DNA of 64,000 nucleotides. Origin: Candidatus Hydrogenedentota bacterium (GTDB lineage: Bacteria; Hydrogenedentota; Hydrogenedentia; Hydrogenedentales; SLHB01). A model generated the notes under the pieces. It did no database searches. It was given only the letters and a program-made list of their open reading frames with translations, and had not been told where the DNA came from. The stretch lies in assembly GCA_963745075.1 (NCBI GenBank), contig CAVUWV010000008.1, positions 288,001-352,000 of the forward strand, read 5' to 3'. How positions within the stretch are numbered: the first letter of the stretch is position 1; each line of letters opens with the position of its first letter. A program made the position numbers and the translations under genes. Below are positions 42,867 through 52,102 of the stretch, in pieces.

Positions 42867-43020
42867 GAACTGTCGCGACGCACATGAATCGTCAAAAAAC
42901 CAATTCCCCCTTTGAAGGGGGATCAAGGGGGATGTTCTTCGCATTGCCATCGCGGAGCATCCAAGCAGACGTGCGCGGACATTCGATGGCGCTTACTACT
43001 GAGGAATGAGGAGTTTTCCA

Positions 43021-43815
43021 ATGAAGATTTGCATGGCAGGAGCCTGCGGCCGGATGGGACGTCGCATTCTCGAGTTGGCGGTGGCGGAAGGGTTCGAAAT
43101 CGGCGGCGCCTTTGACGTGGCGCAGGCCGCGGGCACGGAACTGATCGTTGGCGGCGAATCCGGGAAGCCGCAAACGGTGAAGGTGTCGAGCGATCCCGCT
43201 GCGGAACTCGCGAAGTCGGATGTCTTGGTCGATTTCACCGTGGCCGACGCGTGCGTCGGTAATGTCAAAGCCGCGGCCGACGCCGGCAAACCTGCCGTCG
43301 TGGGAACGACTGGACTTTCCGATGCACAGAAGGCGGAACTGGAAAGCTGCGCGAAGAAGATCGCCATCGTCCACGCGCCGAACATGAGTGTGGGTGTCAA
43401 TCTCCTCTTCAAACTGACCCATGAAGTCGCGTCCATCCTCGGGCTCGATTACAACGTGGAAATCGTCGAGACCCACCACAATCAGAAGAAGGACAGCCCC
43501 AGCGGCACGGCCGTTCGGCTGGCGGAACGCGCGGCGGAAGCGTTGGGCTTGGACTACGGCGCGAATACCACCCATGGCCGCGAAGGCATGGTCGGCACCC
43601 GTCCGCAGAAGGAGATCGGCATGCACGCCGTCCGCGGCGGCGACGTGGTCGGCGATCACACGGTCTACTTCATCGGCCAGGGCGAACGCATCGAACTGAC
43701 CCACCGCGCCCACAACCGCGACAATTTCGCCCGCGGTTCCCTGCGCGCTGCCCAGTTCGCACTAGAGGCAAAACCGGGCCTCTATGATATGCAAGATGTG
43801 CTCGGCCTTCGCTAA
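43021..43815 (+). CDS. dapB: 4-hydroxy-tetrahydrodipicolinate reductase
   Basis: GACGRMG, VGTTG, APNMSVG, ETHHNQKKDSPSGTA. Confidence 0.96.
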   Translation: MKICMAGACGRMGRRILELAVAEGFEIGGAFDVAQAAGTELIVGGESGKPQTVKVSSDPAAELAKSDVLVDFTVADACVGNVKAAADAGKPAVVGTTGLSDAQKAELESCAKKIAIVHAPNMSVGVNLLFKLTHEVASILGLDYNVEIVETHHNQKKDSPSGTAVRLAERAAEALGLDYGANTTHGREGMVGTRPQKEIGMHAVRGGDVVGDHTVYFIGQGERIELTHRAHNRDNFARGSLRAAQFALEAKPGLYDMQDVLGLR

Positions 43816-43911
43816 ATCCAATGGGACCAAACCCGAAATCCGAAGCACGAAATCCGAAACAAATTCCAATTTTCTAAACGAGAAAACGACGCAAACGGAG
43901 AGCGGCTATCT

Positions 43912-43994
43912 CGTGGCTTGGGCATCTTGCCCAAGGAATTCAGTCGCCTGGCCAGCCGACGTGCAGGGACCTTGGGCAAGATGCCCAAGCCACG
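43912..43994. repeat. REP doublet, family B (GTGG-CTTGGGCATCTTGCCCAAG)
   Basis: Inverted copies at 43912-43936 and 43970-43994. Confidence 0.8.
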
Positions 43995-44005
43995 ACTGGC
44001 CGTTA

Positions 44006-45472
44006 TCAAAATCCCTCGAGCCGCATGCGGCCGAAAGTCCTGGCGATTCCTTCTTCGCGCGTGTCGAGGTAATGCGCGAGCACGGCGCACCGGTCGGCGT
44101 CGATGACATGGTCGTTACCTTTCTCGAACAACACCTGTCCGCTGACGCCGATGGAATACGTATGCGACGCGTATTGCGTTTCCCGATCCGACAGTGGCGG
44201 AAACACGATCGACCGGTCCGCCATGTGGCGCTGCAACAACTCCGTCATAAACGTCTTCATCGGCCGCCGGTCCGGGCGTCCGTCCGGCAACGGGTCCAGG
44301 TCCAGTGCGGAACCGAACTCGAAGGCCTTCACCTTTTCGCACCACGCCGCGCCCTGAGCCATGAGGTTATGCGCCACGGCCCGGCCGTTATTTCCGCAAT
44401 CGATACCAATCGCGCGAAAGTCGTACGCGGCGTCGAGTTCCGTGATGATCTCCTGTTGTCGCGCATAATTTACACCCCGCAGGTGAACCCGCAACACGTT
44501 GGCCAGGTGCGGCGGCGCCGAACGAAACACGACAAACTCGGACGGGTCCCGCGCGTAGCCGAGATCGCAGCCCAGGTAATAGTCGCCCGCCGTCACCGAA
44601 CCGGGCACCACAAACGAATCCTCATCTCCTATCGTCACGGACGCGAAGTCCATCCCTTCATCTACACAGGCGAGATAGTTGTCGAGATCGAACACCGCAT
44701 ACGCGGGCGAACCATGCAACCCCAGGACGCGGTGGATGTACCCCGGCGAATCCTTGCCCCCATAAAGCTGGGTGAGTTCCGCGTCCTTTTCCCCGGTGAA
44801 CTCCGGGTTCATCGTGGACGGCCAGTTGTATTGTTCCGCCTTGCGCAATTGCGTCATGCGATAAAACGTGTTCCGTAGCCCGTTGGGAACGCCATAGACC
44901 CAACGCCGTCCTTCACCGTTTAGCGACTGAAACAACTCGCCCCAAGCCGTCTCGGTCATGGCTTGCGCTTCGTCCACGATTTGCCAATCCACGTGAAGCC
45001 CCTGAAAATTCATCCCCTGCGGCCCGGCGATGCGTCCCCACAACACGAACCCGTTGGAAAACCGCAGAAACCACGATGGCGACCGTTTGAACTCGACCAG
45101 ACTCGGCGTGAAGGCGGGCGTGTTCTGAAACCGGCGCACCAGCCGATGCATCAACGGAAATAGGTGGTTTTCGCACTGCGTGGCGATCAGCATTTCCGTG
45201 TCCGGACACGCCACCATGGCCCAAGTGGCGATGATCTCGATCTCGGCCGTCTTGCCCACGTCGCGCCCGTCGCAGTGCACTTTGCGCAGCGCATACGACT
45301 CGAGCGATTCGCGCTGGTACGGACGCGCCTGCCAGGGGCGGCCTTTCGCATCGGTGAGATACGCACGTGCGAACCGCTCGCGCTCGTGCAGGCCCAGCCA
45401 TTGGGCAACGGCGGTTTTTCCGCAGCCTCGATCGGCAAGACGACGAAGAGCGGTTTCAGTGTGAAGTTTCAT
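44006..45472 (-). CDS. Terminase large subunit-like protein (packaging ATPase + RNase H-like nuclease)
   Basis: RPYQ Q-motif, GRDVGKT Walker A, WQIVDEAQ Walker B, YGVPNG coupling region, YLGCDLGYARD and NDHVIDA nuclease motifs. Confidence 0.87.
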   Translation of the reverse strand: MKLHTETALRRLADRGCGKTAVAQWLGLHERERFARAYLTDAKGRPWQARPYQRESLESYALRKVHCDGRDVGKTAEIEIIATWAMVACPDTEMLIATQCENHLFPLMHRLVRRFQNTPAFTPSLVEFKRSPSWFLRFSNGFVLWGRIAGPQGMNFQGLHVDWQIVDEAQAMTETAWGELFQSLNGEGRRWVYGVPNGLRNTFYRMTQLRKAEQYNWPSTMNPEFTGEKDAELTQLYGGKDSPGYIHRVLGLHGSPAYAVFDLDNYLACVDEGMDFASVTIGDEDSFVVPGSVTAGDYYLGCDLGYARDPSEFVVFRSAPPHLANVLRVHLRGVNYARQQEIITELDAAYDFRAIGIDCGNNGRAVAHNLMAQGAAWCEKVKAFEFGSALDLDPLPDGRPDRRPMKTFMTELLQRHMADRSIVFPPLSDRETQYASHTYSIGVSGQVLFEKGNDHVIDADRCAVLAHYLDTREEGIARTFGRMRLEGF

Positions 45473-45508
45473 GAGAGAGGCTCGGGGTTAGGGAGAAGAA
45501 ATCTACAT

Positions 45509-45544
45509 GGGACAACAGAGACAGCAAGGACATCAGAAACATGA
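45509..45544. repeat. 9-nt-period tandem repeat (GGGACAACA/GAGACAGCA/AGGACATCA)
   Basis: Same units as 51833-51864 and 51929-51960. Confidence 0.65.
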
Positions 45545-45563
45545 TGATGCTGAATCGCAGTCA

Positions 45564-46043
45564 TTACTTACCGTGGCCTGCCGCGCTGCACCTTCCATTG
45601 CCTGCCGCGACGACTTCTTCGACGATGCCCTCGGTCTCTTTCAGCAGAGGGCGCAGGAGATCCGCGATACCGGCCGCACCGGCGTCCGGCGTGCCGCCGA
45701 GGGCATCCTCGAATTCCTTCAAGGCTTTTCGCAGGCGTTCCTGGGCTTTGCCCACCTCCTCGCCGTCGGAAGGCTTACGGTCGTCACCTGGTGGCGGATC
45801 GAGACTCGCCGCCAACGCTTTCAAACCTGCGCGTCGGGCCAACGCATACAAAATGACGATTCCTTCGAGACGCATTACCGCCGACGGCTCTGCTTTTCGC
45901 AACCGCCGCTGATACTCCCGCATTGTGGCCGCGACAACCTCGCTTTCCTCGTCGGTGAGGCGGTCGCGCAGCCATTCGGGGTCGGTCCACCGTGCGGTTA
46001 CGACCTGGAGCGCGCTCTTTCGGGTTCGGGTAGGGTGCGGCAT
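45564..46043 (-). CDS. Hypothetical helical protein, candidate terminase small subunit
   Basis: 159 aa, AGAGG RBS, co-oriented immediately upstream of the large-subunit gene; family assignment rests on position and size only. Confidence 0.6.
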   Translation of the reverse strand: MPHPTRTRKSALQVVTARWTDPEWLRDRLTDEESEVVAATMREYQRRLRKAEPSAVMRLEGIVILYALARRAGLKALAASLDPPPGDDRKPSDGEEVGKAQERLRKALKEFEDALGGTPDAGAAGIADLLRPLLKETEGIVEEVVAAGNGRCSAAGHGK

Positions 46044-46139
46044 GGATGAAGTACCTCTACCCTTAGTGCCCAGCGTGTTGCAGTCGGACAATTCGATTTG
46101 GGAGGCGAATAGACAATCGGACTCGGGAACTCCGACCCG

Positions 46140-47990
46140 TCAGGGCGCCGGAACCGACGCCAAATACTCGTCCAGGATGCGCCGAACCTCGAGAATTGCG
46201 AGCGGGTTGTACTGCGCCGAGTGTCCGGATGGTACAATCTTCTCCGACGCGGCGCCGTCCAGATGCGAACTGGAATACGGAACCACCCCGTCGGTCATGG
46301 GTTCGCCTTCTTTTGCGATATTGCCCATGATCGAATGGTAGGTCACGTCCGGCGCGATGGGAATCTTTTCCATGGCCTGGATGATGGGGTTGTCGGGCGA
46401 CAGGTTGTCCACGCTCGTGAGGCGCCGCTTCTTCACATCGCCCTTGAGCGCGTCGGGATTGCGGTCCACGAAGGCAATCGTCTGCGTCAGCAACACCTTG
46501 GGGACGGCGATCAACGCCGACACCAACGTGCCCAATATGCCCTCGCTCAACTCGCTGCCCCGGTGCGGTGTCGAAATGAAGATCACCTGCTTCACGAACG
46601 GCAACGGTTTGAAGAAGAACACGTCCCGGATAAGTTGCTCTTCCTCGGGCGTCGTGTCCAATTCGTCCAGTGGTTTCCGGCTAATCGCGTTCCACAGCGT
46701 ATCGCCGCTGTCCTGCACCATCAGCTGCGCGATGAGTCCGCCCATACTGTGGCCAATGAGCACCATTTCGTCGAAACACGCGTCGTCGTGTTCCGGGTCG
46801 AACCGCTCGCGAATGTCGACCAACGCGTTGCGCAACTGGCTCGCCGGGTATGCGAACGGATACGCCGTCGGATACTGGAAGAACCAGAACTGGTATCGCT
46901 CGCGCAGTTCCGGCTGACCGCGCAAGTCGTTCAGCATCTCGGCCCAGGTCAGCGGACTCGACACGAGCCCGTGGATCATGACCACGGGAATCTTATCCGG
47001 CTGGTAGGGTTCCAGCATGTACAGGCCCGCCTCGTCTTTGACGCGGTCCGCCCGCAGGAACCCGATGTACGCCGTACGTTCGAGTTCCGGGTTCGACAGC
47101 AGGAAGCCCAGCGGCGTCGTGATATCCGACTCGAGCGGTACCGGTTTCTGCTCCACCGGCACCGACTGAATCTGCATGGAATCGAAGAGGTCCAAGGTGG
47201 CGGTCGGTTGGGCCGGTTCGCACGCGGACCCTTCGATTTGCAGGAACGCGGTCGCGGCATAACTCGGCGTATCGGGAAGGTAGCTCCCTTCCGGCGGTTC
47301 GGCACCCACTGCGATCAACGGCACCCCCAGGCCGAAGGTGCGATACCGGTTGCGAATGCCCTCCACCTCATATTCCGACGCAAGTAGGACGCGGGCAATA
47401 TCTTCCTTGGGCAGAAAACCTTTCCGCTCGATCTGTAGGTCCAGATTGCCGTCCCACAGCGGGACCTCGACCCGGCCATCGGACAGCGTGCGGCCCGTCT
47501 GTTGCATCAGGCGAATGCCGCGGGCCAGGGAGAAGTTGTAGAGATCGCAGGCCAGCCGGAACCGCGGGTCGAAGGGATCCGGCGGCGCGCCAAAGCCCTC
47601 GTCGAAAAGGTAGAAATAGGAGTACCGCGCCGCGCTGTAATAGAACCCGAGCGCGTCCTCCGGCGTCTTCTTTTCCGCTCGTTTCCCGTCATAGCAGGCC
47701 AGTTCGGCCAGCCCGAACAAAATTGCGCGGTCACCCGAATCGCAGGCTTCACCGTGCAGCGTGTCCAGGGTCCCGCGCGGGTCCTTCTGATAGGTTTCCT
47801 GAAGGTCGTAAGTCCGCAGCAATTGCTGCGTGTGGATGCTCAACCCGTCCGAACTCAGCGCGTTCCCCTGTAACTTTCGGAAGGACACGTCCGTGGAGAC
47901 GGGCTTCAACGACACCCCGGCAAAACACCCCGACCCTAGCATCACCGCCAGGACAACGCACCAGCGCGCTATTGGGCACAGTTTCTTCAT
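46140..47990 (-). CDS. Alpha/beta-hydrolase (esterase/lipase) lipoprotein
   Basis: PVVMIHGL, IGHSMGG nucleophile elbow, ISTPHRGS, DGVVPYSS, GHS; lipobox LGSGC. Confidence 0.9.
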   Translation of the reverse strand: MKKLCPIARWCVVLAVMLGSGCFAGVSLKPVSTDVSFRKLQGNALSSDGLSIHTQQLLRTYDLQETYQKDPRGTLDTLHGEACDSGDRAILFGLAELACYDGKRAEKKTPEDALGFYYSAARYSYFYLFDEGFGAPPDPFDPRFRLACDLYNFSLARGIRLMQQTGRTLSDGRVEVPLWDGNLDLQIERKGFLPKEDIARVLLASEYEVEGIRNRYRTFGLGVPLIAVGAEPPEGSYLPDTPSYAATAFLQIEGSACEPAQPTATLDLFDSMQIQSVPVEQKPVPLESDITTPLGFLLSNPELERTAYIGFLRADRVKDEAGLYMLEPYQPDKIPVVMIHGLVSSPLTWAEMLNDLRGQPELRERYQFWFFQYPTAYPFAYPASQLRNALVDIRERFDPEHDDACFDEMVLIGHSMGGLIAQLMVQDSGDTLWNAISRKPLDELDTTPEEEQLIRDVFFFKPLPFVKQVIFISTPHRGSELSEGILGTLVSALIAVPKVLLTQTIAFVDRNPDALKGDVKKRRLTSVDNLSPDNPIIQAMEKIPIAPDVTYHSIMGNIAKEGEPMTDGVVPYSSSHLDGAASEKIVPSGHSAQYNPLAILEVRRILDEYLASVPAP

Positions 47991-48133
47991 GGGATCGTGG
48001 TACTCCGACGCGGTCCGTGCACGATAAACGAAATCTAGGCGATTGTCCAGGTCGGTGCGAACGAACGTCACGTTTGTATGTATCGTGGAAAGGGGGTATC
48101 CTCCGCGTTAATATGGCCTAAAGGACACTTGCT

Positions 48134-51832: not shown

Positions 51833-51960
51833 GGGACAGCAGGGACACCAGCGACAACAAGGACCAATTTCAAAAATACCCCCCAGCGCGGCTATTCCCG
51901 GGGACGTTGTAAGCCATCATACGTCTTCGTCCCTGCTGTCTCTGATGTCCTTGCTGTCCC
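51833..51960. repeat. Inverted pair of 9-nt-period tandem repeats
   Basis: GGGACAGCA-type x3.5 at 51833-51864 and its reverse complement at 51929-51960. Confidence 0.7.
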
Positions 51961-52102
51961 TGTATCAATCCGCGCGCGCTTCTGGCTACTACCGCCATTC
52001 GTACTCAATCACACGCGCGTCGCGCACGCGTTGACCCGCCTTGCCCTTCACGCCCTACAATTCACGGATTGGTGCAACGAACCCACGCGGGAGGAGCGGC
52101 AT

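Follow-up and report, generated by a model that had tools for sequence, protein, structure and literature searches.

A lone terminase gene pair conserved across Hydrogenedentota may encode the DNA-packaging motor of a domesticated GTA-like particle

The 64-kb stretch of a Candidatus Hydrogenedentota chromosome analysed here (the window) carries an apparently intact pair of terminase genes in the midst of host genes, which raises the question of what a phage DNA-packaging motor does in such a setting. The large subunit gene, terL (44006..45472, minus strand), encodes a protein of 488 aa, and upstream of it on the same strand is a gene for a probable small subunit, terS (45564..46043), a small helical partner of 159 aa when read from the ATG at 46043. 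An earlier note on this DNA had described the pair, with its large subunit motif set, as sitting between dapB and an esterase gene; the reading frames and motifs were confirmed, with dapB (43006-43815, plus strand) flanking terL and an alpha/beta hydrolase gene (46140-48071, minus strand) flanking terS. The same note had seen no portal, capsid, tail or integrase gene in the 64 kb, and this was borne out by a PHROG scan of the 56 genes called in the window: tail, connector, lysis and integrase matches were absent, no phage replication or integrase gene was found beside terS-terL, and the window TerL was the sole ‘head and packaging’ match at E<=0.001. An adjacent prophage has not been lost to an assembly break, because the window lies inside a 562-kb contig. 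The GC content at terS-terL is 60-61%, as in the flanks. A palindromic REP-like element with two 26-nt arms that are 100% complementary (43911..43995) is found downstream of terL, between the convergent dapB and terL genes, and a host repeat copy lies in the terS-terL gap (45515..45541), an inverted 93% match to 51937-51963 over 27 nt. The gap repeat noted earlier is thus real, but it is weak evidence of long residence, since the genome holds many repeats of this kind and they are mobile. A DprA-like gene is present at 1899-2903 of the window. Linkage of terS-terL to the esterase gene is confined to the genus, and an ancient fixed position beside dapA-dnaB was rejected, as this setting was common to one of 29 other loci tested (G030).

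The terminase identity of the 488-aa protein is clear from fold search only, because sequence searches against both the PDB and Pfam missed it; matches to PHROG TerL families were weak (E 2.4e-4). The structural model of TerL (pLDDT 90.9) was compared with solved structures using Foldseek, where the best matches were the large terminase subunits of T4 (gp17), D6E, HK97 and Sf6, with E from 2.9e-19. These matches cover full-length solved proteins as well as both domains separately, and define an N-terminal ASCE ATPase joined to a C-terminal RNase H-fold nuclease. The motifs RPYQ, GRDVGKT, IVDEAQ, GCDLG and DHVID are present in the translation, and nine catalytic positions are invariant in 119/119 aligned homologues: Q53, which binds adenine; R70 and K74 in Walker A with its arginine finger; D167 and E168 of Walker B; and the four nuclease aspartates D303, D358, D454 and D458.

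That the 159-aa protein is the terminase small subunit is probable. Its predicted complex with TerL supports the assignment. By sequence or fold, no family was clearly matched: the all-helical product has no Pfam, PDB or BFVD match, and its alignment by hhalign to the TerS of a related prophage is weak (E 0.11). This alignment places the window protein just after an N-terminal GNxNxxKHG segment that the prophage TerS has and the window protein lacks. An Atlas lead (0.87) was to a cluster annotated Terminase_4 (56%) and Terminase_6 (48%), at rank 23. Homologues of terS are found order-wide on the same strand upstream of terL, with one gene inserted in some loci; the alignment was built from small ORFs only, and a third profile iteration that had drifted onto TerL C-termini was excluded. 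The predicted TerS-TerL complex scores 0.69 compared with 0.00 for the best of three controls, the mark used being attained by 116/157 solved complexes and 2/215 mismatched pairs. Between runs, contact agreement was at least 80% and partner pLDDT at least 66. The predicted interface sets the conserved C-terminal helix of TerS (residues 122-148) on the N-terminal region of TerL, and docking through a C-terminal helix fits other terminases. The modelling supports binding of the 159-aa protein to TerL, with the proviso that the model may pass through its likeness to solved terminases.

Within the phylum the large subunit is far from rare. TerL was matched in 36/40 relatives and, at E<=1e-100, in 108/126 Hydrogenedentota genomes (81/86 of the high-quality ones), mostly as a single copy; it was not found, profile search included, in G027 (95%) and G041 (96%), both of which keep the capsid discussed below. 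Distances in the TerL tree follow those of RpoB (Spearman 0.70 over 25 genomes, a value reached in 0/2000 permutations, although kin are not independent), and five of nine supported splits are common to the two trees, with two in conflict; in the portal tree four of eight supported splits conflict. Selection is purifying, with dN/dS of 0.04-0.14 for terL and 0.19-0.40 for terS (calculated over five pairs of congeners, two of which are close to saturation). Both terS and terL belong to the core genome and are maintained by purifying selection; they are intact, almost universal and present in single copy. The presence of terL in 108 genomes, its broad tracking of RpoB and its low dN/dS argue that it is not a prophage relic. 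Nor did the findings that the earlier note had named as speaking against domestication materialize: the pair is present in relatives, no assembly break intervenes, and viral homologues are distant, the best 80 of 130 IMG/VR relatives being only 30-36% identical to the window TerL and isolated-phage TerLs 22-31% identical.

The earlier note had also proposed that the pair could serve a scattered GTA-like system as its packaging motor. This proposal is supported: the portal, capsid and tail-end genes that the window lacks are kept together in a single conserved operon on the same contig, which was located by searching the rest of the source genome (G000) and lies at C8:463063-472354, ~130 kb from terL. 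The portal gene comes first, followed by genes for a protease-like protein, a 75-aa protein, a 235-aa protein, a decoration protein, the capsid, an adaptor, a Dit, a 584-aa hub-like protein, a 173-aa structural protein and a holin-like protein. The capsid is of the HK97 type (Phage_capsid_4) and the portal is Portal_Mu-like: the Pfam Portal_Mu model matched in 40/41 genomes and 0/14 controls, the match in G028 being a different, Mu-type portal, so that orthologues number at most 39/41. Of 126 phylum genomes, 108 carry the capsid, 93 carry both capsid and TerL, and 123 carry at least one of them. The order from portal to hub is complete in 19/23 loci (two are reduced, one is split and one is at a contig end), and eight operon genes have dN/dS values of 0.065-0.17 in the one pair compared. 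An endolysin-like (peptidase-like) gene precedes the holin gene in 13/23 loci. Although terS-terL is unlinked in the source genome, terL is found one gene upstream of the portal gene in G022 and G035 and adjoins the operon end in G091. The sole capsid match in IMG/VR (L236) is a 7.9-kb contig with a reduced operon beside a host-like gene, and is probably a chromosomal piece. A 3D-domain gene (PF06725) that is absent from the window recurs near terL outside family f1 (L044, L045, L046, L047, L051, L052, L054, L279-L281).

An ordinary prophage remnant, or a lineage-specific prophage acquired many times over, might be argued from the source genome itself, where the endolysin-like gene was not found and the protease gene is frameshifted; such a reading is barely credible and largely refuted by single-copy presence across the 126 genomes, the host-like tree and the low dN/dS. 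Codon usage is also host-like, portal and capsid falling at the upper end of the genome-wide range, and integrase or phage replication genes were found neither beside terS-terL nor, among the ORFs read, beside the head operon. The contiguous head-tail-lysis-replication-integration block, patchy among relatives, that defines a temperate prophage was not found. The source assembly probably contains indel errors, because rpoB is split by two frameshifts (C8:415741-419522). We consider it rather likely that terS-terL encode the DNA-packaging motor of a phage-derived GTA-like particle that was domesticated by the ancestor of the Hydrogenedentota.

The tail end of the operon bears on what such a particle would do. 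Dit and hub-like genes are present; tail tube, tape measure, head-closure and sheath genes were not found in the source genome (89.7% complete) with four Pfam models and the ORFs of 17 related phage loci, and one weak tape-measure match (E 7.9e-4) was set aside because its frame is opposite to host-like genes. A staphylococcal-nuclease-like domain lies within the hub (L125:4145-5899), with D192, R210, D215, E218 and R289 invariant, and the 235-aa operon gene (L125:8961-9725) carries a LigD 3'-phosphoesterase-like domain (profile E 4e-8) in which the H, H, D, R and H positions are invariant. Nucleases of the staphylococcal type leave 3'-phosphate ends, which LigD-type phosphoesterases remove, and a cut-and-heal pair is a speculative role for the two. 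Searches for the hub gene found it in none of the genomes of family f13 (0/10) and in few of family f11 (3/21), and in two loci the capsid gene is followed at once by endolysin and holin; such genomes can evidently do without delivery machinery. It could be that the particle was domesticated and is made, but serves some end other than gene transfer: a capsid with no tail or a stub of one might carry the nuclease, store or export DNA, or take part in programmed lysis and DNA release. Fitting with this are the lack of a detected tube or tape measure in the source genome, the invariant nuclease residues in the hub, the retention of capsid and TerL in f13 and f11 where the hub was not found, and the capsid kept without TerL in G027 and G041. 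Set against it, the fully conserved motor and portal imply that DNA is filled into the head, Dit and hub are kept in 84/126 genomes, and mobile terminase offshoots (see below) suggest transfer from cell to cell; we regard a purpose other than transfer as unlikely, though it deserves to be taken seriously.

A shared upstream motif connects the two loci. The candidate promoter of terS (46054..46083, minus strand) combines the motif CTGCAACA with a TA-rich box (CTAAG) and a purine-rich ribosome site behind it, and is common to the portal operon. Across the upstream regions read, TGCAAC stands ahead of a TA-rich box, usually at 30-70 nt before the gene start. In the discovery set, that is, the sequences on which the motif was found, the strict core occurs on the sense strand before 13/24 terS and 12/23 portal genes, compared with 14/574 control neighbouring genes, and is absent (0) from the antisense strand; genome-wide, it precedes 102/5921 called genes of the source genome. 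The TGCAAC core is also present at the portal gene of the source genome, but the base before it differs. Among loci fetched later, the motif is clear in 3/6 terS (a fourth is likely) and 1/2 portal regions. No palindromic operator was enriched in the upstream regions. TGCAAC is described as the upstream element in two Streptomyces sigma-E target promoters (PMC6767563), which by analogy suggests an ECF-type sigma factor as a lead for the candidate regulator. Two near-identical primase-helicase-like genes in the source genome (C20:222920-224320 and C24:14622-16020; L237, L238) have the motif upstream of each, REP-like flanks and a tyrosine-transposase-like ORF beside them. A role for this gene as a core run-off replication gene was rejected, since it is REP-flanked, occurs in two copies in the source genome and was matched in only 9/40 relatives (one of them closely).

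The motif also helps in judging whether the host has recruited terS-terL by itself, as a DNA translocase or nuclease that acts independently of the head operon. In most genomes the pair and the operon are not linked and the genes flanking the pair differ, as lone exaptation would have it, and motif III of the ATPase reads YGVP in 115/116 family rows compared with YSTP in 75/80 of the nearest viral loci. Since mutations in motif III are reported to abolish packaging in T4 (PMC9958956), the idea that YGVP marks an uncoupled or disabled motor was tested, and it was not upheld: the G-V pair is also found in 66/139 distant TerL representatives, which speaks against reading it as a sign of lost coupling. 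The ties between terS-terL and the operon (their co-occurrence, their linkage in three genomes and the motif common to both) make exaptation on its own very improbable.

How does the putative GTA-like system compare with those already described? The definition of GTAs (viriforms) and their genomic features have been set out elsewhere (PMC9953437, PMC7947584), and several of these features are found here: vertical chromosomal inheritance, two loci ~130 kb apart under selection, and the lack of a replication or integration module of their own. As in RcGTA and CcGTA (Rhodogtaviriformidae), BaGTA and VSH-1/BhGTA, phage-derived head and packaging genes are inherited vertically, are spread over several loci and are apparently co-regulated; in CcGTA, a main cluster and about 18 accessory promoters are described as being under one activator (PMC11150451). 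The candidate Hydrogenedentota system differs from the named GTAs in belonging to another phylum, in its apparent descent from a separate phage (its portal is Portal_Mu-like and its capsid Phage_capsid_4), in having its terminase pair detached from the head operon, in the absence of a detected tube or tape measure, and in the hub nuclease domain and LigD-type phosphoesterase gene. The RcGTA head-tail cluster comprises a PF04860-type portal and a PF05065 capsid. In the source genome no PF04860 portal was found (a Caulobacter control was positive) and the only PF05065 match lies in a separate integrase-bearing island, which argues that the system is not of the Rhodogtaviriformidae family. That island lies at tRNA-Pro (C14:62500-70950) and carries a capsid fragment. 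A literature search covering few subscription journals found no published description of the system in Hydrogenedentota. From its genes it looks like a GTA-like domesticated packaging system, with the shared motif, hub nuclease, 3'-phosphoesterase and capsid-less offshoots as its new parts.

The nearest viral relatives of the window TerL (30-36% identical) belong to an uncultured prophage/ICE-like family (L056, L057; IMG/VR L156-L235), which has the same Walker A, Walker B and nuclease motifs. It differs in having its own portal, MuF, capsid and recombinases, a TerS with the GNxNxxKHG segment and the YSTP form of motif III, and it is patchy, with its portal in 3/41 genomes. In 4/40 relatives there are intact prophage-like elements whose TerL is 35% identical, so related phages do infect the phylum, and this lends some plausibility to an anti-phage role in which infection induces the host capsid and terminase, which then poison the assembly of the invading phage or turn it aside. 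A complete, ordered operon with lysis genes exceeds what interference needs, however; tblastn with the portal and capsid of these elements did not find the host operon, whose own portal and capsid thus appear unrelated to theirs; and the window has no defence-island context. Interference is consequently improbable as the function of the pair.

Further evidence comes from additional terminase copies that lack a head operon. Taking the vertically inherited core copy of the window as class A, a second group (class B) comprises TerL copies ~70% identical to the window TerL, and forms one clade nested in class A (100/100 with 7 rows; 11 rows from four genera). In the source genome these copies lie at C1:370030-373490 and C24:448768-456057 (L003, L002), both of which are split near residue 120, and further copies are found at C36:280184-281608 and C27:167119-168511. 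Class B copies occupy variable sites without portal or capsid, and are linked to a small subunit of another type, which is larger, contains an HGGxSTG-like domain (a match below cut-off) and has the same upstream motif; in G015 the two subunits are fused into a single 947-aa ORF. An older group, class C, has a TerL that is 41-43% identical and is found in small islands of four genomes (L262/L263 in G102, L264 in G105, L265 in G044 and L266/L267 in G101) with replication-like and small regulator-like ORFs; the terS profile matches in 2/4, and no portal or capsid was found in the 15-32 kb read. No integrase was found in the offshoot stretches read. Class B shows signs of crossing between genera, as its cross-genus synonymous divergence (pS 0.47) is below that of rpoB (0.54-0.59) and class A (0.60-0.66). 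The offshoots might alternatively be relaxed duplicates, but class B dN/dS is 0.08-0.24, and both classes are probably hijackers of host capsids. Capsid-less terminase offshoots make sense if the capsid is made and filled. Satellites of the PICI type encode packaging genes but borrow capsids, and the class B and C offshoots resemble them in having terminase genes without portal or capsid, a patchy distribution and variable sites. The differences are that the window copy is fixed and vertical, that class B derives from the host's own domesticated terminase, and that the helper would be a host-encoded particle. A dispersed repeat family with ~25 sites on many contigs of the source genome (e.g. 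C17:7648 and C21:43680, both minus strand) opens with the motif, a ribosome site and an ATG like the 5' end of class B terS, and continues into hairpins with no conserved ORF; three genomes within the genus give 19, 7 and 2 matches to it, and G015 and G039 give none.

If the favoured reading of a domesticated GTA-like particle is followed through, one host regulator would switch on both terS-terL and the head operon via the shared TGCAAC motif, and procapsids would form. The small subunit would dock on the ATPase domain of TerL by means of its C-terminal helix. Being without the N-terminal segment of related phage TerS, it would let packaging start with little sequence preference, so that host DNA is cut and packed as headfuls. 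The cell would then lyse and the particles would deliver DNA to kin, possibly finishing through ComEC, which is encoded in the source genome, and DprA. A fuller picture, attractive but on balance doubtful, is of a GTA-like particle that was domesticated independently and is made throughout the phylum, has no conventional tail tube but a nuclease tip, an end-healing phosphoesterase in its head operon and one dedicated promoter, and is parasitised by terminase-only elements that left the domesticated terL, took an HGGxSTG-like small subunit with the same motif, and ride host capsids between genera. Should that be true, the terminase-only elements would be satellites whose helper is a GTA and not a phage, and their existence leads to the prediction that virome data would contain capsids of one size holding host DNA and enriched for the offshoot elements; the shared motif offers a handle on the regulator of the system. 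Only a few independent GTA domestications are classified according to PMC9953437, which treats the frequency of phage domestication by bacteria as an open question. A phylum-wide case outside the known hosts and with unusual parts would, if true, add a further independent origin of GTAs and a route of gene flow in an uncultured phylum.
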